This document shows positions 15-8,305 of a DNA stretch of 64,000 nucleotides, piece by piece. This DNA is from Candidatus Woesearchaeota archaeon. GTDB taxonomy: Archaea; Nanobdellota; Nanobdellia; SCGC-AAA011-G17; JAFCDX01. The notes beneath the pieces were generated by a model, which saw only the letters and a list, made by a program, of their open reading frames with translations, did no database searches and was not told the origin of the DNA. The stretch lies in contig JAFCDX010000004.1 in the NCBI GenBank assembly GCA_017609465.1, positions 1,822 to 65,821 on the forward strand, in the 5' to 3' direction. Positions within the stretch are counted from its first letter, which is position 1; each line of letters begins with the position of its first letter. Made by a program: the position numbers and the translations under genes.

Positions 15-272
15 ATGGCTTCTTCAATATTAACAATTCATTATCCTGAAAAATATGGAGTTATAGACATAAGAGATTGGCACACACTATATAATTTAAG
101 GTTAGTAGAATATAAGAAAGATGTTTTCAATGTTAAAGATTGGTTGTTGTATCTTAAAATTATTAGAGATTTAGGTAAGAAATATGGTGTAACTCAAAGA
201 GAAATAGATAAAGCAATATTCATGTATGATAAAATAAACAGAAAAGGAAATTTATATAAGAACACTAAATGA
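15..272 (+). CDS. hypothetical protein, probably 5'-truncated by the window edge
   Basis: ORF track. The frame stays open upstream of the ATG back to nt 3, so the true start may lie outside the window. First gene of a tightly spaced same-strand cluster (15-3891). Confidence 0.4.
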   Translation: MASSILTIHYPEKYGVIDIRDWHTLYNLRLVEYKKDVFNVKDWLLYLKIIRDLGKKYGVTQREIDKAIFMYDKINRKGNLYKNTK

Positions 273-307
273 GAAAATACTTAAAGGTAAAATAAAGGTA
301 TAAAATA

Positions 308-889
308 ATGAATGAAGAAGATAAAATATCTATAAAAATAGTCGAGATGTTAAAAGATAAGTTGTGTAAATTTAATTCAAAGGTTGAGATAGGCTCACAA
401 AAACATGTGTTCATAGGTTCTACTTTGGGTAATTATAACAAAAAACTCAAATTAATATTTCAATCGGCAAAACAAGATATTGTTGTTTATTTAAAACCAA
501 ATATAGATTCTAAAAAGTTATTTGAACATGATTTTTTCTCAAAATTTACTAATAGCTTTCCAGATAACAATTTTATTGTTCCGTTGATTATTTTTGAATT
601 AAAATATAAAGCTGTAACAACACATCAAGTTAGACAATACAGTGAAGAATCAAGAATGATAAAACATATATTCCCTTTTTGTTCATTCAATCTGGTATTA
701 ATTGACGCGGTAGATGTTAATCAAAATAAAATAGATAGAATATATATGGCAGGAAATAATTATAACAAAATAATTAATTTTGAAGAATTAGATTACACTA
801 AACTTGTTGACACCTTGTTTAAATTGATAAAAGAACATATCAATTATCTAAAAACAGAAGAATTCCTTAGATTATCAAATTTTTTATAA
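308..889 (+). CDS. hypothetical protein, possible PD-(D/E)xK-fold nuclease
   Basis: 193 aa. 'QDIVVY...IIFELKYK' gives an Asp ... Glu-x-Lys arrangement reminiscent of PD-(D/E)xK nucleases. The gene ends 5 nt before the DUF2779 gene. The fold call is weak. Confidence 0.45.
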   Translation: MNEEDKISIKIVEMLKDKLCKFNSKVEIGSQKHVFIGSTLGNYNKKLKLIFQSAKQDIVVYLKPNIDSKKLFEHDFFSKFTNSFPDNNFIVPLIIFELKYKAVTTHQVRQYSEESRMIKHIFPFCSFNLVLIDAVDVNQNKIDRIYMAGNNYNKIINFEELDYTKLVDTLFKLIKEHINYLKTEEFLRLSNFL

Positions 890-894
890 GCAAA

Positions 895-2298
895 ATGGAA
901 ATACTAACAAAATCAAAGTATCTTATCGGATTGCAGTGTCCTAAGTATTTATGGACAGTTTTTCATGAGAAAGAGAAGATTCCTGAGGCTTCTGCAGCAG
1001 ATGAGTTCAAGTTCAAGCCAGAAGGCATTGATTTACCAGTTGATAATTATAAGAAAAATCTTGAAGATTCTGAGAAAGCTTTGAAAGATAAAAAGCCATT
1101 ATTTGAAGCTGGATTTGAGTTTGATAATTGCTTTTCAAGAGCAGATATTCTTGTCCCTAATGGAAATAAATGGGATATAATAGAAGTAAAATCAGGGACT
1201 AAAGTTAAGGATATTAATGTTCATGATGTTTCTTTTCAGAAATATGTTTATGAAAATAAAGGCATTAAAATAGGAAAATGTTTTCTTTTGCATCTGAATA
1301 AAGAATATGTAAGAAATGGAGAAATTGATATTGATAAATTGTTTGTAAAAGAAGATATTACTTCTGAAGTTAATGAGCATATTAAAGGCATTAAAGAAAG
1401 GATTACCGAAATGTTTGAAGTAATTAATTCTAAGAAATCTCCTGAAACTTCAATAGGAAATCATTGTAAAGATCCTTATGAATGTCCTGTATGCCATTGC
1501 TGGGAAAGTTTACCTGAAAATCATGTATTTTGTTTGTATAGAGGTGGAAAATTAAGTTGTGAGCTTTATGATTCTGGTGTGGAATCAATAAAAGATATTC
1601 CTGATGATATTAAGCTGAATGACAAGCAGGGAATACAGAGAGATTGTGAGATTAAAGGAAAAGTTCATGTTCATAAAGAAAGATTAAAGCATTTTCTGAA
1701 TACTTTACAATATCCTCTTTATTATCTTGATTTTGAAACATTTTCTACTGCTATTCCTATGTTTGATGGATTAAAACCATATTCTCAGGTTTGTTTTCAG
1801 TTTAGTCTGCATGTTGTTGAGAAAGAAGGAGCTAAGCCTAAACATTATGACTTCCTTTATGAAGGAAATGGAGATCCAAGAGAAGAATTTCTTATTGCTT
1901 TGAAGAAAGTGTTGGGTGATAAAGGTTCTGTTGTTGTTTATAATCAAAGTTTTGAGATTAATCGCTTGAAAGAATTAAGTGAACAGTTTCCTTCTTATAA
2001 AAAATGGGTTGACAATGTTTTAACAAGAATTGTTGATTTATTAATTCCTTTTAGGAATTTTAGTTATTATAATCCTAAACAGCATGGAAGTGCTTCAATT
2101 AAAAAAGTTCTTCCTGCTTTGTGTGGAAAGAGTTATTCTGGAATGGAAATAGATAATGGTGGAACAGCTTCTGTTGAATTTTTTAATATGTGTTATAATA
2201 ATGGAAAAGATGTTCGTAAAGCTTTATTGAAATATTGTGAATTGGATACTTTAGCTGAGGTTATGATTGTTGAGAAGTTGAGAGAGTTGGTTAGTTAA
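895..2298 (+). CDS. DUF2779-family protein (Cas4/RecB-like nuclease domain with Fe-S cysteines plus C-terminal DFET domain)
   Basis: N-terminal 'SKYLIGLQCPKYLW'. 'ADILV..WDIIEVKSGTK' supplies D...ExK. Cys cluster 'HCKDPYECPVCHC' at nt 1465-1500, then 'LYYLDFETF'. This is the layout I know for DUF2779. Confidence 0.8.
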   Translation: MEILTKSKYLIGLQCPKYLWTVFHEKEKIPEASAADEFKFKPEGIDLPVDNYKKNLEDSEKALKDKKPLFEAGFEFDNCFSRADILVPNGNKWDIIEVKSGTKVKDINVHDVSFQKYVYENKGIKIGKCFLLHLNKEYVRNGEIDIDKLFVKEDITSEVNEHIKGIKERITEMFEVINSKKSPETSIGNHCKDPYECPVCHCWESLPENHVFCLYRGGKLSCELYDSGVESIKDIPDDIKLNDKQGIQRDCEIKGKVHVHKERLKHFLNTLQYPLYYLDFETFSTAIPMFDGLKPYSQVCFQFSLHVVEKEGAKPKHYDFLYEGNGDPREEFLIALKKVLGDKGSVVVYNQSFEINRLKELSEQFPSYKKWVDNVLTRIVDLLIPFRNFSYYNPKQHGSASIKKVLPALCGKSYSGMEIDNGGTASVEFFNMCYNNGKDVRKALLKYCELDTLAEVMIVEKLRELVS

Positions 2299-2327
2299 AA
2301 AAAGAAGATTATTTAAATAAAAGAACA

Positions 2328-2945
2328 TTGTTTATTATAATGATAAGAAAAATACCTGCATCAAATAATAATGAAGTAGAGGTTTTATGTGTTCCATGGT
2401 ATCCTCAACAAGAAAATAGTTATTACTGTCTTCCATATTCGCTTTGGATGGTATTACAATTTTACAAAAATATACATAATAATGATTTAATAAGGAAGAA
2501 TATCCCAGATTTAGATGTAGAGAAAATTGCAAAAATATGCAAAACAGATCCAAGAGCAGGAACCAGAATCAATGAACAATTGATTGTAAGTTTAAACAAA
2601 GAAATCCCAGCTTTAAATTTCAGGTTAGTAAATGCTTACGATTTTAATCAACTTAAAAGAATTGTAGTGGAAAATAATTGTCCTTGCATCATCATTTATG
2701 ATTGTGGATATTATATTTATGGTATTGAAAGCCAAGTTGGGCACGCAGGGGTAGTTATAGGATTAGATGATAATGCAATATATTTAAATAATCCATGGTT
2801 GGGGGCAGAAGTAGAAATTGATAAAGTGAAATTTAATGATTGTTGGGAAATCGAATATAATCAAATTTTGCTGATAGAACCTAATTTACAAACAAATTTG
2901 AATGAAGAAAATTTTAATAAAAATGCAAACAAAAATTCCAATTGA
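2328..2945 (+). CDS. papain-fold cysteine peptidase, C39-like
   Basis: 'PQQENSYYCLPYSLWMVLQFY' supplies the Gln and catalytic Cys context. 'VGHAGVVIGLDDNAIYLNNPW' supplies the His and Asn/Asp context. Order and spacing match C39-like peptidases. Confidence 0.55.
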   Translation: MFIIMIRKIPASNNNEVEVLCVPWYPQQENSYYCLPYSLWMVLQFYKNIHNNDLIRKNIPDLDVEKIAKICKTDPRAGTRINEQLIVSLNKEIPALNFRLVNAYDFNQLKRIVVENNCPCIIIYDCGYYIYGIESQVGHAGVVIGLDDNAIYLNNPWLGAEVEIDKVKFNDCWEIEYNQILLIEPNLQTNLNEENFNKNANKNSN

Positions 2946-3891
2946 AAAACCTCAAAAAGAGGATATTAAAAGAATATCTCATTTTTTTATTAGAGAAAAC
3001 TACGGGACAATTCCTTCAATTGGAGAACCAAAATTAGAAGGAGAGAAATGGAATGTTCCAATAAACGCTAATTATCCAAGGGTTTTGTTTAACCACGTTA
3101 AACAAATACCAGATAAAGTAAGATTTATGTCTTTTAAAAATTTAGGCAAACTTGAATTATCTGAAAAGGGAATAGTGATTTCTAAACCAAGATATTATGA
3201 GATGGTTGGTGCTATAAAGAAAAGACTAGATGAAATAAAAGTGTCAGTAGAAAAAGCTCTGTTAAAAGTTGCAGCGGATAAATTTTCTTTATTAAGTTTT
3301 CCGGATCATATGTTTACTCCGATACAAGATATTCTGGCATGGTTAATACTTGAGGATACTCTAAAATTAGACGAATTTCTGTTTAATATACATGATGAAA
3401 CTAGAAAAGAGAAATATTTACAGAATATTAAAATATTAGAATCTGTTAAATTAGTAAAAAACCAAAACGGACTTATTTTACCAGGAGACCCATTAATTGA
3501 AATTGAAATGAGAAAAGATTTGTCTAGAACACAAAAATTAGCGACTGCACTTACTTATTTTTATCAAAATGGTTACGAAAATTTAGATGCGATATCCTCT
3601 TTCCTAGGTCCACATTTAATTATTTCTGCACAAGTATATAGAGAATCGATTGAATGCAATCAAATTATTGCAATTAATGAAAAAGGTTTTAAAGAAATCA
3701 TTAATGAGTCATATACAGACAAATCTAAATTAAGTAAATTACCAAGATATTTATTACAACTTGAATCTATTAACTTATTAAAACCTAGTGAAAAATTTGA
3801 AAATTCATGGGAACCAAATCCAGAGGTTTTTAGTAAGATTATCGGAGAAGAAGAATTAATAGCTCCAATACAAGAGATGATAATCAAATAA
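2902..3891 (+). CDS. hypothetical protein (last gene of the 15-3891 cassette)
   Basis: 329-aa ORF overlapping the end of the peptidase gene; the start may be the internal Met at about 2923. No motif recognised. Confidence 0.6.
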   Translation: MKKILIKMQTKIPIEKPQKEDIKRISHFFIRENYGTIPSIGEPKLEGEKWNVPINANYPRVLFNHVKQIPDKVRFMSFKNLGKLELSEKGIVISKPRYYEMVGAIKKRLDEIKVSVEKALLKVAADKFSLLSFPDHMFTPIQDILAWLILEDTLKLDEFLFNIHDETRKEKYLQNIKILESVKLVKNQNGLILPGDPLIEIEMRKDLSRTQKLATALTYFYQNGYENLDAISSFLGPHLIISAQVYRESIECNQIIAINEKGFKEIINESYTDKSKLSKLPRYLLQLESINLLKPSEKFENSWEPNPEVFSKIIGEEELIAPIQEMIIK

Positions 3892-3904: not shown

Positions 3905-4210
3905 TTATTTTTCTTCAAAATTTTTATCAATGATTTTAATTTCCTCTTTTGTTAATCCATAAATTCTATAGATTCCTTTGTCAATTTCTTCATCTAATTT
4001 TTGAATTTCTTTTTCAATCTTTTCTTTCTCATCCGTAGTTTTGTCTTTTAACTTTATTAGTTTTTCTCTTAATTCAACTTCTTTATTTATTAATTTAATA
4101 AATTCATCTTGTATTTTCCCACTAATTTTTTTAATTGGTATACTCTCCAAAAATGTTTTAGAAATATTCACTGTAAGAGTGGATTTATTAGGAAATTTAT
4201 TTACATAGTT
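3905..4210 (-). pseudogene. 3' remnant of a second type IIG/Eco57I-TaqI-like RM gene
   Basis: The frame is open only from the stop at 4211-4213. It reads NYVNKFPNKSTLTVNISKTFLESIPIK...IYRIYGLTKEEIKIIDKNF, collinear with NYYYINVFSMKSSLTVNVTQGYLSQIPIP...VYRLYGLTKEEIKVVEEDF of the 1039-aa enzyme. 27 nt are identical (3935-3961 vs 4962-4988). Confidence 0.7.
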
Positions 4211-4282: not shown

Positions 4283-4957
4283 TCATTTTATGTTAAATCT
4301 TTCTTTTAAGATACACTTACTCTGTTCTAAACTATAAGTTAAACCTTTCTTATCTTTCTCGTTTAGTATAGAAAGTATCTTTGGATGGTAATAGTTGAAT
4401 ATTTTATTATTATCTATAAAATCTTTTACTTTCTTATTTAATTTTTGATTATTTTTAATATCTTGTAAGTTTACTTTATTAGATTTTAAATACGTGTCAA
4501 AAGATTTATGTAATTTTTTCATCATAAGATTGATAATTTTTGCTTTGTCTTCAATTCTATTAATATATAATTTCAAATCATCTGTATTATTCCCTTCTAT
4601 TTTATAATCTATTTCTTTATAATAAAGAGATTCTTCAGGTAAAGGTAATAAATAAAAAGGAAGTGGTTGTTCTTTGTAAGAATTAACCATAGTCTCTATT
4701 TCTTCTATTTTAAACTTTAATGTTTTTAAGAGGGATATTTGATTCTTTTTGTGTTCATATCTATTGATTCTCCAACCAGAATAAAAAATTATAATAGCAA
4801 TCAAAATAGATAAACTCCCAACTTTTGAAGAAAGGGTAATATCTAATTTTATCCACCCGAAGATTATAACAATAAGTAGGATTAAATAAACCATAATTTC
4901 TAGAAGAAAACAACAGATCTTATTCCATTTACACATCCTATTTAAAGTCCTCCTCAA
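4283..4957 (-). CDS. membrane protein, two N-terminal TM helices, unknown function
   Basis: 224-aa ORF immediately downstream of the type IIG gene. It overlaps by 20 nt, or starts at the Met at 4936, 1 nt after the RM stop. Hydrophobic 'VYLILLIVIIFGWI' and 'VGSLSILIAIIIFYSGW'. Confidence 0.6.
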   Translation of the reverse strand: MRRTLNRMCKWNKICCFLLEIMVYLILLIVIIFGWIKLDITLSSKVGSLSILIAIIIFYSGWRINRYEHKKNQISLLKTLKFKIEEIETMVNSYKEQPLPFYLLPLPEESLYYKEIDYKIEGNNTDDLKLYINRIEDKAKIINLMMKKLHKSFDTYLKSNKVNLQDIKNNQKLNKKVKDFIDNNKIFNYYHPKILSILNEKDKKGLTYSLEQSKCILKERFNIK

Positions 4958-7900
4958 CCACTTTAATTTCCTCTTTTGTTAATCCATATAATCTATAAAC
5001 CATATTATCAATCTCTTTATCTGTTTTATCAATTTCTAACTTTAATTTAGATAATTCTTTTTTGTTCTTTTCAAAAAAGTCTAAAAGTTCAGATTTTTTA
5101 TCCATGCTTAGATTTACTTTTAACTGCCCCATAAAATCATTAAAATCCAATTCATAGAATTTATCTAATTTTTTAGTTACTTTTTCTATTTTATATTCAT
5201 GTTTGATTAGTTTTAAAAATTTATTTTTCTTTTCATAAAACTCCTTATTTAATTTTAACATTAAGTCTGCTTTTTCTATAAATGGTTTCTGTTCTTTTTC
5301 TGAGATTGTTGGAATTGGAATTTGTGAAAGATAACCTTGAGTTACATTGACCGTCAAACTAGATTTCATTGAAAATACATTAATATAATAATAATTAACT
5401 AATTTTGAATTTAGTAAGCATAGAACATATTTAATAGAATAATCATCTATTTTTGATAAAATCATATTTGTAGAGTTATAACAATATAATTTTTCATCAT
5501 CATATGTAGCCACTAAACCAGAACCAATTCTTTGTAAAATTAATTTTTCTTTTGAATTAAAAGCTTCAATATCTCCTTTTCTTGTTAAAACTGAATCGTC
5601 ATAAAAGACATAGCCGAAAGACTTAACTTTCCAACGAGCAATGTCCCTTCCCATTACTGCCTTTTTCCATTTAGTGTCTTTTTGTGTTGTAAGAAAATAT
5701 TTTTTATTATCTTTTGTGTTTAGTCCAAAAGAAACGATATCATAACAATTTTCTAAATTATCAGAATTTTTTTGCATTTTGGATTTTATGTTTGACACTG
5801 AATCATCTTGATAAATATTAAACATATTATCCAAAGTTTCATTAAAAGTGTTTTGTGTAATTTTTCGTTTTTTAAAATTATTTTGTTCAAGATTTATGTT
5901 CTCTTTAATAACAATATTATTGTTTTTTGGTTTCTCATTTAATATTCTTAATATGATAGTTTCTCCAGTTACATTATCAAATATCCCTGCACCTAAATCA
6001 AAGATTTCTGAAATGGTTGTATTATTAAGAAGATATTTTCTTAAGAATTTGTAGGATTCTACTTTTAATAAATTCTTATGGACTATTAAGGACAAAAATC
6101 CGCCCTCTTTTAATAAATTTACACCTCTTTCTATCCATAAGGAGAACAAATTTAGTTTTACTCCTCCCCTAGTTGATAATTCATTACTTGATAAAGTGTC
6201 ATATGTCTTTCTATAATATTCTCTTTCTTTATAATCTATATTTGGATTTTCCGAAGTTCCTTTTTGACTTACATAAGGAGGATTCCCAATCACAATATCA
6301 AATTTAAATGAAAACTCTTTTTTCCAATTAAACGCTTTTGAATCAATTTCTTTGTCATCAATCAAAGAATTTCCACATTTTATATTCTTAGATAAATCAA
6401 TTAATTTTTTATTTTTCTTTGCAATTTTTAAAAATAAACTTAATTTAGTTATTTCAACAGATTCCTCATTTATATCTACACCAAAAATATTTCTCTCTAT
6501 AATTTCTCTGGCTTCATCTTCTTCATTCCACTTAACTAACATTAACTGACCTTCATCTTTTTTCTTCTTCCTACCTTTCTTAATGGCAGTATATTCTCCT
6601 TTATCTTGTTTAAACAATTGTATTTCTTTGTGTATTTCCAACAGGATATCAACTGCTTTGATTAAAAAGGCACCAGAACCACAAGCAGGATCCAATATTT
6701 TAATGGAAGAAAATTTTCCTTCTAATTCTTTAATATTTTTTTGATGTTCCAATACCAAATCTCTTGGTGTTGAAGCTTTTCCTTTTGATAAATAAGGAAT
6801 GATCGTATTTCTACAAATATAATCTGTGATGTATTCGGGGGTGTAATAAATTCCTTCCTTTTTCCTTTTTGTTATTTTTCCTTTTTTTAATTCTTCTAAA
6901 TCAGAAAGAGATTGCTCAAATATATGTCCTAAAATATTAACACTAACTTCAGTGTTAAAATCAAAAGAAGCCATAATTAGCAGGTTTTTAATAATTGAGT
7001 TAATTTTATTCTCATATTTTAAAAATATTTTTTTAGAAATTGGATCTAATTCTGGTTCCTTCTTCAATTTCGAATGTTGATAAATCTCTACATAAAATTT
7101 TTTATTTCTTAAATCCTTAAAATATACTACTGGAGGAATTTCTTCTCCAAACAATCCACCATTAAAACCAAATATTTTAGTAGGAGTTTGAGAACCTTTA
7201 TCAAGACTTAAAAAAAATCCTCTTATTGCTTCTGAAATAAAGTTTGAATGTTCGGTTATTGGCATACCAGAATCTAAAACCTTTACAATTAAATTTTCAA
7301 ATAATCTTTTTTCTAGCTTACTTGTATCTTCTGCAAAAAATACAAACATTAATCTATTCAAAAATAGCTGTGCATAATGTATTGATTCTTCATTAGAAAC
7401 CCCATTCGCTTGGAATTCCTTCACTAACATTAATCTTGTTTCATGAAATAGTTTGTAAAATTCTTTAGTAAAATTTCTTTCTTCTATATTTGATTCTTCT
7501 TTTAATTTCTCTACAAAATTATTATCAATTATTTGCTCTTTTGAAAAAATAGCAATAAACTCTTTTAGTTTACTATCATTGTTTTTTACTTCTTCAAAAT
7601 CAAAGAAGTGATAGGTGGATGAACCCTTTGCTCTATCAATTAAAACAAAATCTTTGTAATTTGTAGCAATACCATAATCTAAATTAAGTTTGCCCATATA
7701 TGTCCACAACTGATTTACAGGTGTTTTTTGTCCTTCTCTATATCCTTTTTGTTCAGCAAACAAATCTTTAGTTTTAGTCCCTTTAGCTTCTATACCTAAA
7801 ATTGTCTTTCCTTGATTATTTTTAAAAGAAAACTCGATATTTCCTGCTTCAAAATCCATATCTTTTCTAACATCATACCCTAAAAGGTCCTTTAGGATAT

Positions 7901-8057
7901 ATTCAACAAATTTAATATAATTTAGTTTCTCTTTTTTTAATTTACCTTGTTCAAGAAGATATAACCAACTTTTAGCAGCTACTTTTTGTTTATTATTGAT
8001 TTTAATTTTAGAAGAAAGCCTTTCTACTGTTTTAAGATTAAATAATTCTTTCTTCAT
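4938..8057 (-). CDS. type IIG restriction-modification enzyme (fused nuclease / N6-adenine methyltransferase / TaqI-like specificity domain)
   Basis: SAM motif I 'ILDPACGSGAFL', motif IV 'VIGNPPYV', and 'GIYYTPEYI'. N-terminal 'DFEAG...ILGIEAKG' gives D...ExK. C-terminal 'VYRLYGLTKEEIKVVE' is typical of Eco57I/TaqI-like enzymes. Confidence 0.85.
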   Translation of the reverse strand: MKKELFNLKTVERLSSKIKINNKQKVAAKSWLYLLEQGKLKKEKLNYIKFVEYILKDLLGYDVRKDMDFEAGNIEFSFKNNQGKTILGIEAKGTKTKDLFAEQKGYREGQKTPVNQLWTYMGKLNLDYGIATNYKDFVLIDRAKGSSTYHFFDFEEVKNNDSKLKEFIAIFSKEQIIDNNFVEKLKEESNIEERNFTKEFYKLFHETRLMLVKEFQANGVSNEESIHYAQLFLNRLMFVFFAEDTSKLEKRLFENLIVKVLDSGMPITEHSNFISEAIRGFFLSLDKGSQTPTKIFGFNGGLFGEEIPPVVYFKDLRNKKFYVEIYQHSKLKKEPELDPISKKIFLKYENKINSIIKNLLIMASFDFNTEVSVNILGHIFEQSLSDLEELKKGKITKRKKEGIYYTPEYITDYICRNTIIPYLSKGKASTPRDLVLEHQKNIKELEGKFSSIKILDPACGSGAFLIKAVDILLEIHKEIQLFKQDKGEYTAIKKGRKKKKDEGQLMLVKWNEEDEAREIIERNIFGVDINEESVEITKLSLFLKIAKKNKKLIDLSKNIKCGNSLIDDKEIDSKAFNWKKEFSFKFDIVIGNPPYVSQKGTSENPNIDYKEREYYRKTYDTLSSNELSTRGGVKLNLFSLWIERGVNLLKEGGFLSLIVHKNLLKVESYKFLRKYLLNNTTISEIFDLGAGIFDNVTGETIILRILNEKPKNNNIVIKENINLEQNNFKKRKITQNTFNETLDNMFNIYQDDSVSNIKSKMQKNSDNLENCYDIVSFGLNTKDNKKYFLTTQKDTKWKKAVMGRDIARWKVKSFGYVFYDDSVLTRKGDIEAFNSKEKLILQRIGSGLVATYDDEKLYCYNSTNMILSKIDDYSIKYVLCLLNSKLVNYYYINVFSMKSSLTVNVTQGYLSQIPIPTISEKEQKPFIEKADLMLKLNKEFYEKKNKFLKLIKHEYKIEKVTKKLDKFYELDFNDFMGQLKVNLSMDKKSELLDFFEKNKKELSKLKLEIDKTDKEIDNMVYRLYGLTKEEIKVVEEDFK

Positions 8058-8305
8058 TTCCCCATCTCCTTCACAGCTTCAGCAGGATCCTTTAATTTAT
8101 ATAACCTTTTTCTGGAATCATTTGGATCTAATGTTAATTCTAACCACCTATATTTCTTTAATCTTGAAAGAACTATACTTGTATTTGTTATCTTGAGTAA
8201 ATCTTCTGCCTGCTGATGGGTAAACTGCTTATCTTTAAATTTAGACCATAATTTAGAATAGTGCTTCATAATCCATTTTGGAAGAGGAGATATTATATTA
8301 CTCAT
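8054..8305 (-). CDS. small winged-helix DNA-binding protein, possible controller of the RM gene
   Basis: 83 aa. 'SIVLSRLKKYRWLELTLDPNDSRKRLYKL' looks like a recognition helix plus wing. Its stop overlaps the RM start by 4 nt. Confidence 0.65.
   Translation of the reverse strand: MSNIISPLPKWIMKHYSKLWSKFKDKQFTHQQAEDLLKITNTSIVLSRLKKYRWLELTLDPNDSRKRLYKLKDPAEAVKEMGK

Follow-up and report, generated by a model that had tools for sequence, protein, structure and literature searches.

What does a tightly packed run of five genes on one strand, lying beside restriction-modification (RM) genes, amount to in a small archaeal genome? The question is raised by the start of a 64,000 nucleotide (nt) stretch of DNA from Candidatus Woesearchaeota archaeon (assembly GCA_017609465.1, contig JAFCDX010000004.1, positions 1,822-65,821). 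This whole stretch is referred to here as the window and its contig as C31. The source genome sequence comprises 801 kb in 36 contigs and is 89% complete. The five genes, g1 to g5, extend from position 3/15 to position 3891 of the window on the forward strand, and a first-pass annotation had read them as a single candidate defence system.

Taken as a whole, the best explanation is one that is held here with moderate confidence. It sees the five genes as a chance juxtaposition of two independent conserved modules, side by side only here, within a piece of a variable, defence-island-like region of a DPANN (Woesearchaeota-type) archaeon. Module A joins a DNA glycosylase-like gene (g1), a variable middle gene (g2) and a gene for a predicted double nuclease of the DUF2779 family (g3). 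Module B consists of a cysteine peptidase gene (g4) and the gene for its 329 amino acid (aa) partner (g5), and would be a horizontally mobile archaeal pair that stands on its own and is coupled in translation. Both modules are conserved and previously undescribed.

Conservation of the five genes across loci

The five open reading frames (ORFs) are all present on the same strand and as tightly packed as first described, with spacings from g1 to g5 of 35, 5 and 29 nt followed by a 44 nt overlap. Tight packing alone is no evidence of one operon. Searches outward from each of g1, g2, g3, g4 and g5 found the full set in no other locus. The trio of DUF2779, peptidase and 329 aa protein, singled out earlier for a check of its neighbourhood conservation, dissolves as well, there being no second locus that unites DUF2779 with g4 or g5. 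DUF2779 is carried by 9 of 40 relatives, and g2, g4 and g5 are absent within 1.5 kb of it in all nine; DUF2779 in turn is absent from all of the 23 g5 loci except the window. Because the genes are not conserved together, the very point on which the first-pass annotation had let its reading turn, the claim of a five-gene unit fails.

That all five form one co-transcribed and co-functioning defence system of nucleases and a cysteine peptidase is therefore very improbable. Such a system would agree with the common strand and tight spacing, the adjoining RM genes and the lack of fit to any known system, but it would have to account for a gene combination seen nowhere else, with DUF2779 loci that have no g4 or g5 and g5 loci that have no DUF2779. 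It is also opposed by a locus in a related genome (L060) that holds Module A and an RM gene without g4-g5, and by a promoter-like element at a conserved distance before g4. As a caution of wider use, tightly packed genes on the same strand of a small genome need not form one system.

The earlier remark that no named system was known to combine a nuclease with a standalone cysteine peptidase in this way agrees with PADLOC, where neither module fits a model other than the generic Cas4. When the models of PADLOC-DB v2 were run against the five proteins, generic Cas4 was returned for g3 and nothing for g1, g2, g4 or g5 at E <= 0.1. The proposed defence-island context stands in part: the stretch is variable and defence-island-like, and both modules recur beside RM, helicase, HerA, Mrr and insertion sequence (IS) genes, but the five genes are not one unit within it. 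The decayed and intact type IIG RM genes said to flank the cassette are both real according to Pfam and PADLOC, and the link of a type IIG RM gene to the DUF2779 module is real in one relative (L060). A search for insertion scars around g4-g5 found AT-rich chance repeats only.

The peptidase gene and its partner

A g4-type gene is present directly 5' of g5 in 23 of 23 loci, about 20 of which are non-redundant, the two genes being -44 to +2 nt apart. These loci come from the window, Woesearchaeota-type contigs, Methanoperedens, Methanosarcinales, Methanobacteriota metagenome-assembled genomes, two deep-branching DPANN genomes and a megaplasmid of Haladaptatus pallidirubidus. In this last species (strain YIM 93656) the pair lies in the WP_227777232/WP_227777233 region of plasmid NZ_CP085302.1. 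All-vs-all clustering of the neighbouring genes identified no third gene that is conserved with the pair. The high-scoring g4 orthologues are found only in genomes with a close g5. A further 40 genomes have distant C39-like genes of 145-185 aa, and in ten loci of this kind that were inspected there is neither a g5-like partner nor a common neighbour.

The g4 gene (2328-2945, forward strand) encodes a stand-alone, predicted cytoplasmic protein of 205 aa. Its description as a papain-fold C39-like peptidase is borne out by a match to Peptidase_C39_2 (PF13529; 30.6 bits, cut-off 24, E 5.9e-7) and by one to the PDB entry 3erv, a 'putative C39-like peptidase' (E 1e-4). Across 14 diverged orthologues there is conservation of the catalytic residues Cys34, His139 and Asn155, the last being Asp in some of them. 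Based on alignments of homologues, the likely start of g4 is the ATG at 2340 and that of g5 the ATG at 2923.

The g4-g5 pair appears, from its upstream sequence, to have its own promoter. A BRE/TATA-like element at 2304-2320 on the forward strand, probably the promoter of the pair, matches 9 of the 14 positions of the genome's promoter 14-mer and is centred 28 nt before the ATG at 2340; strong matches to this 14-mer in the window cluster 25-34 nt before ATGs. In the window, as in L003, L005, L006 and L009, a TATA-like element precedes g4 by 27-30 nt.

The 329 aa protein encoded by g5 (2902-3891, forward strand) had been listed as uncharacterised, and indeed it has no family match in Pfam, NCBIfam, PHROGs or PADLOC. 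It has 11 close relatives with 39-81% identity, and a profile search extends the family to 178 clusters at 50% identity. The distribution is patchy, with g5 relatives in 3 of 400 genomes of the phylum and none in IMG/VR. An AlphaFold2 (AF2) model from a 12-sequence alignment has a mean predicted local distance difference test score (pLDDT) of 88.7 and a predicted template modelling score (pTM) of 0.84. In it, an N-terminal alpha/beta domain of a helix and six strands (residues 19-94) is followed by a long helix and by helical, winged-helix-like modules. Foldseek searches of PDB and BFVD with this model gave no match to the whole fold and none below E 2e-3, the similarities being local and to winged helices. 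Sequence profiles give weak HTH_45/Sso10a signals (PDB Sso10a, E 0.07), and a Pfam scan of 74 members of the family found scattered weak matches to nSTAND_NTPase4, HTH_45 and Abi_alpha, in three to four members each. The most conserved segments are Y-P-R and K-x-R-F-M-x-F in the N-terminal domain, and P-R-Y-L-x-Q. A PepSY/cystatin-like identity of this domain, suggested by nothing more than the order of its secondary-structure elements, is not claimed. As modelled, g5 is a new architecture with winged-helix parts.

Frequent neighbours of the pair are RM genes, a ResIII helicase with a methylase, SNF2, SWIM with HD, HerA and Mrr/TraC-like genes, IS1595 and, as read from the sequence, a fragment of an IS110-like transposase.

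Several further observations were made on the peptidases and on the pair loci. The distant C39-like genes include those of ten of the 40 phylum genomes (L050-L059), which make up a separate family of small stand-alone peptidases present in about 10% of the sampled DPANN genomes. Two contigs with the pair are binned as bacterial. One is 2.5 kb in length and binned as 'Saccharibacteria' (L034, CAZTRD010000104.1), with a g5 that is 75% identical to that of the window, and the other is binned as 'Anaerolineales' (L039, JAIWAT010000019.1). These probably represent mis-binning; transfer to bacteria is less likely. The loci L006 and L007 are otherwise syntenic and differ just 3' of the pair, where one has Znu-type ABC genes and the other an IS1595 transposase, which marks the 3' border of the pair as a hot spot for recombination or insertion in these two. 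In L031, a gene for 234 aa (726-1430; G319:C69) is convergent to a deep-branching pair, with 29 nt between its end and that of the g5-type gene; the N-terminus of its product looks, by eye, similar to Cas1-like proteins.

The glycosylase-like gene and DUF2779

A gene of the g1 family and a DUF2779 gene lie on the same strand within 2 kb of each other in six DPANN loci: the window, L060, G065, G341, G342 and G408. Across the six, g1 is 31-83% identical and DUF2779 is 41-58% identical, there are two gene orders and the middle gene differs. In L060 (GCA_974442395.1, 27.6% GC) a Csa3/CARF-like gene, g1, a gene for 160 aa, DUF2779, a type IIG RM gene and DUF4238 follow one another with 4 nt overlaps, and nothing in this locus resembles g2, g4, g5 or the 224 aa protein encoded behind the RM gene of the window. 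The order in G065 is Csa3-like gene, g1, a gene for 153 aa and DUF2779, and that in G408 is g1, DUF4365, a gene for 360 aa and DUF2779. In G341 and G342, DUF2779 overlaps a downstream g1. The g1 family is present in 11 of the 400 phylum genomes; 7 of these 11 also have DUF2779, compared with a base rate of about 25% (98 of 400), and in 4 the two genes are adjacent.

Only part of g1 (3/15-272, forward strand) is within the window, as the first-pass annotation had recorded, but the window edge alone is not the reason. Retrieval of the 1.8 kb upstream of the window revealed the N-terminal half as a 90 aa ORF at contig positions 1546-1818, and the two frames overlap at contig positions 1797-1815, the window portion being the C-terminal half. 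The read-through product has 88 relatives, which include intact single ORFs of about 180 aa with up to 93% identity over 98-99% of the query. Intact homologues thus occur elsewhere, and g1 is here either frameshifted or mis-assembled. A 12 of 14 match to the promoter 14-mer is located 28 nt before its ATG.

Two of the intact g1 homologues have been named 'thermostable 8-oxoguanine DNA glycosylase' by JGI. There is a match of g1 to phrog_24538 (E 6.9e-13). The read-through product matches, weakly, the N-glycosylase/DNA lyase model NF002305 (E 1.7e-3, 17.8 bits against a cut-off of 183), and there is no match to HhH-GPD in Pfam. Comparison with MutY profiles from PDB gave E values of about 0.6-1.2, which are not significant, exactly over the region that holds the helix-hairpin-helix (HhH) and the Asp. 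Across the family an HhH-like motif, L-x-x-L-x-G-V-S-I-P-M-A-S, is nearly or fully invariant, and Asp115 after it is invariant. The family has no Lys at the HhH position, and therefore g1, if active, would on this motif reading probably be monofunctional. No relatives of g1 were found in IMG/VR. DUF6308 and a 307 aa protein of L027 had been considered as g1 homologues because of their motifs, an idea that hhalign did not support; the literature search found no papers on DUF6308 or on 'OGG fold protein'.

The DUF2779 gene g3 (895-2298, forward strand) encodes 467 aa and begins only 5 nt behind g2, with no promoter-like element at a usable distance. Its earlier assignment to DUF2779, with Cas4-like Fe-S cysteines and a DFET domain, was confirmed. 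The match to PF11074 covers positions 1-126 of the 126 in the model (148.4 bits against a cut-off of 23.3, E 1.6e-43), and there are matches to RNase_H_2 (E 1.4e-6) and to the Cas4 model of PADLOC (E 1.4e-7), whereas Cas_Cas4 of Pfam scores 16 bits, below its cut-off of 22.7. Residues C15, D84, E97-x-K99 and Q115-K-Y and the DFET exonuclease motif are invariant among the relatives. The C-terminal cysteine cluster, C-x5-C-x2-C-x-C, is present in the window and is not invariant among the relatives. Thus g3 has the motif set of Cas4, which consists of a RecB-type D...ExK, Q-x-x-x-Y and one N-terminal and three C-terminal Cys, and is predicted to join an Fe-S nuclease of this type to a DEDDy 3'-5' exonuclease. 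There are no cas genes in its neighbourhood, so the association with cas genes that characterises the Cas4 of CRISPR systems is missing. Cas1 (PF01867) was not found in the 89%-complete genome, while control genomes were positive, and g3 is for this reason read as a 'solo' Cas4-type fusion.

Alone among the aligned proteins, g3 has lost a segment of 13 residues between K53 and P54 (alignment columns 54-66), corresponding to 39 nt in frame. The segment has the consensus E-G-x-x-V-G-x-L-A-x-x-L-F and is present in all ten of the other DUF2779 proteins; the catalytic residues of both nuclease domains are all kept despite the deletion. Together, the g1 frameshift and this loss suggest decay, and Module A appears to be decaying in this genome. 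The DUF2779 genes of the relatives have no conserved neighbour. They are surrounded by PIN and ImmA-like, MNT-HEPN and HNH genes, as read from the sequence, and by fragments of restriction genes.

Between g1 and g3, the small gene g2 (308-889, forward strand) encodes 193 aa and has no match in Pfam, NCBIfam, PHROGs or PADLOC, and none in PDB by sequence. Only 6 other members of its family were found among 5.8 billion clustered proteins. The D...ExK that had been noticed in it holds up, with D57 and K99 invariant and E97 lost in just one member, a decayed one. In an AF2 model (pLDDT 77) these three residues lie on the expected strands of an alpha-beta-beta-beta-alpha-beta core, and the Foldseek matches, to Mus81/Eme1, EcoO109I and FAAP24, are weak and not significant (E >= 0.014). 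A PD-(D/E)xK-like fold is suggested by the modelled core and the placement of these residues. A Cas4-family PDDEXK_1 gene is located 3' of g2 in two related metagenomic locus types, L023 and L027. Homology of g2 to the middle genes of other Module A loci (the 160 aa gene of L060, the 153 aa gene of G065 and DUF4365 of G408) was sought with hhalign and none was found. Because the middle genes elsewhere are unrelated to it, g2 is read as one of several interchangeable small genes.

Two features of the related loci were also noted. A 217 aa HFX_2341_N/Csa3-like (CARF-type) gene stands before g1 in L060 (3906-4559) and in L077 (G065:C3, 8944-9597), and the two copies are 75% identical; the adjacent g1 in G065 is only about 31-33% identical to the window and L060 type. 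The Csa3-like gene may regulate Module A, or it may be a hitch-hiker carried along by recombination. No remnant of such a gene was found 5' of g1 in C31. In L080 (G408:C2) the gene that follows g1 encodes the DUF4365 protein (5736-6260). We take DUF4365 to be a PD-(D/E)xK nuclease-like family, and if this is right a small nuclease-like gene in the middle slot is recurrent despite the families being unrelated.

The genes 3' of g5 are on the opposite strand. A type IIG RM remnant, the 3' end of a gene, is at 3905-4171 (PADLOC REase_MTase_IIG, positions 1176-1245 of 1247, E 1.5e-7). It is followed by the gene for the 224 aa protein (4283-4957), which has no family match, and by an intact type IIG RM enzyme of 1039 aa (4938-8057) with Eco57I, TaqI_C, MmeI_Mtase and MmeI_hel domains (PADLOC REase_MTase_IIG, E 3e-64). 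A gene for 83 aa (8054-8305), without a family match, overlaps the start of this RM gene by 4 nt. The type IIG enzymes of the window and of L060 (7082-10315) are 69% identical over residues 1-696 and 42% identical over residues 878-1039. No alignment is obtained between them for residues of about 697-877, which presumably form the specificity domain, and this looks like a domain swap. The type IIG gene of L060 is directly 3' of DUF2779, while that of the window is inverted relative to DUF2779. At the other end of the region, positions 1-127 of C31, 5' of the window, hold an open frame of 41 aa that looks like the C-terminal end of a transposase and has no Pfam match. The contig probably breaks at a repeated element.

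Possible functions and known systems

In Module A, the OGG-fold/HhH protein would recognise and flip or excise an unusual or modified DNA base, leaving abasic or nicked DNA for the DUF2779 double nuclease to cut and resect; the module would in some genomes act alongside a type IIG RM enzyme. In Module B, g5 would bind nucleic acid through its winged-helix modules, and its N-terminal alpha/beta domain would dock active g4 in a roughly 1:1 complex. A trigger would then release or activate the proteolysis of g5 itself or of targets belonging to the cell or a virus, making the pair a protease-based conflict, abortive-infection or toxin-antitoxin-like module. Defence is a plausible role for either module in view of its genomic context. 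It is a tentative proposition, with somewhat less than an even prospect of being right, that at least one of them (glycosylase with DUF2779, or peptidase with winged-helix sensor) is a genuine anti-virus or anti-plasmid system.

Several points weigh against the favoured explanation, one being that PADLOC has no fitting model other than generic Cas4. In about 94 of the 98 DUF2779 genomes no g1 lies next to the DUF2779 gene, and the neighbours of distant g1 relatives are genes for enolase, an RFC-like AAA+ ATPase, RIO-type kinases or a prepilin peptidase. For these last two reasons Module A could be a pairing for repair. The glycosylase identity of g1 is drawn from sub-threshold matches, a motif and source names, and is thus putative; errors of assembly could account for both the frameshift in g1 and the deletion in g3. 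No nuclease gene follows g2 in L026, L045 and L047, and the place of g2 in Module A is accordingly supported by three loci, of which two are related, and opposed by these three that have no nuclease. An unlikely alternative is that Module A belongs to housekeeping or accessory DNA repair, with Ogg-like base excision followed by end processing by DUF2779. The JGI names and the housekeeping neighbours of the distant g1 relatives are in keeping with this, as are the presence of DUF2779 in 25% of the phylum genomes and its quasi-essential status in JCVI-syn3.0 (PMC13621843). Repair sits less well with a patchy distribution, with linked loci whose neighbours are Csa3/CARF-like, type IIG RM, DUF4238 and DUF4365 genes, with solo DUF2779 genes among PIN/ImmA-like, MNT-HEPN and HNH genes and restriction fragments, or with a module that tolerates decay in the window genome.

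For Module B, too, there are observations that speak against the favoured explanation: the genes beside some pair loci are housekeeping ones (for GMP/CTP synthase, CDC48, AspRS and an aminotransferase), the winged-helix signals of g5 are weak, and both DNA binding by g5 and a contact between g5 and g4 are putative. The pair could instead be a regulatory switch of a mobile element, in which g5 is a DNA-binding repressor that g4 cleaves on a signal, by analogy with ImmR/ImmA or CapH/CapP though with a peptidase of the cysteine type. The winged-helix parts of g5, the strict and coupled pairing, and the occurrence of the pair on a megaplasmid and beside IS elements would suit a switch. We consider it improbable, given that there is no conserved regulated cargo or third gene and the neighbours differ per lineage, that g5 greatly exceeds typical repressors in size and its conserved N-terminal domain is not a helix-turn-helix (HTH), and that no relatives are found on viral contigs. 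The usual task of C39 peptidases is the processing of double-glycine leaders at ABC exporters, and Pfam places g4 in C39-like families, so that maturation of a secreted peptide by removal of a double-glycine leader would be the conventional expectation. This is hardly credible for the pair. Neither an ABC transporter or exporter nor a conserved small precursor ORF is near it in the 23 loci, inspection by eye shows no signal peptide in g4 and no double-glycine site in g5, and the sole conserved partner is a 329 aa protein that by eye is free of signal peptides and membrane segments.

If both modules are immune systems, an OGG-fold protein would mark modified or foreign DNA and a Cas4/DEDDy nuclease would destroy what is marked, giving DUF2779 its first functional context; in addition, a two-gene protease-based system would be spreading horizontally among DPANN, methanogen-related and haloarchaeal lineages. 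The matter is of some general interest because DUF2779, a family of no known function, turns up in one of every four DPANN genomes sampled and is found widely among bacteria. Its recurrent link to a glycosylase-like gene, variable in order, provides the testable idea that DNA processing by DUF2779 follows the recognition or excision of a base. The peptidase and its partner form a compact archaeal module, strictly coupled, in which the catalytic triad is intact and the partner is of predicted new architecture, and the pair is genetically testable because it is present on the megaplasmid of a cultured haloarchaeon.

Among described families, DUF2779 is known as an uncharacterised fusion of a Cas4-like and a DEDDh-like nuclease, and in JCVI-syn3.0 it is MMSYN1_0389 (NCBIfam UU173); g3 shares its Cas4-type D...ExK, Q-K-Y and DEDD-type exonuclease motifs (PMC13621843, PMC3985635). 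The mycoplasma protein does not have the full set of four Fe-S cysteines, whereas the archaeal (DPANN) g3 retains it. The DUF2779 of Module A also differs from the family as described by its link to an OGG-fold gene, and the window copy by the absence of the 13 conserved residues. Stand-alone HhH glycosylases (Dag) and Brig1 protect bacteria from phages that carry modified bases (bioRxiv 10.1101/2025.10.29.685425; PMC11078745). The g1 family resembles Dag, of the HhH superfamily, and Brig1, of the UDG family, in being small and HhH/OGG-fold-like, with an invariant Asp and with defence-type neighbourhoods in a subset of genomes. However, Dag and Brig1 act alone, whereas g1 is coupled to a double nuclease, has no curated glycosylase match above the cut-off and is frameshifted in the window. 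No pairing of a glycosylase with DUF2779 was described in the literature searched.

Like Peptidase C39 and C39_2, as in the bacteriocin-processing domains of PCAT ABC exporters and in PDB 3erv, g4 has a papain fold with Gln, Cys, His and Asn (or Asp) as its catalytic set. It differs from them in being stand-alone, by eye without a signal peptide, with no transporter or double-glycine precursor and with an obligate 329 aa partner that is predicted to contain winged helices; the literature search returned nothing relevant on Peptidase_C39_2 in archaea. The pair is also reminiscent of ImmA/ImmR, IrrE/DdrO and CapP/CapH, which likewise consist of a protease and a partner of the (winged-)helix DNA-binding type encoded by two genes on mobile or variable DNA. 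These systems use a Zn metallopeptidase (HEXXH), which in the ImmA/IrrE type cleaves a small HTH repressor, while g4 is a cysteine peptidase. In comparison with switches of the ImmA/ImmR type, g5 has no HTH family match above threshold and the pair no conserved cargo, and g5 is three times larger and, as modelled, of a new architecture.

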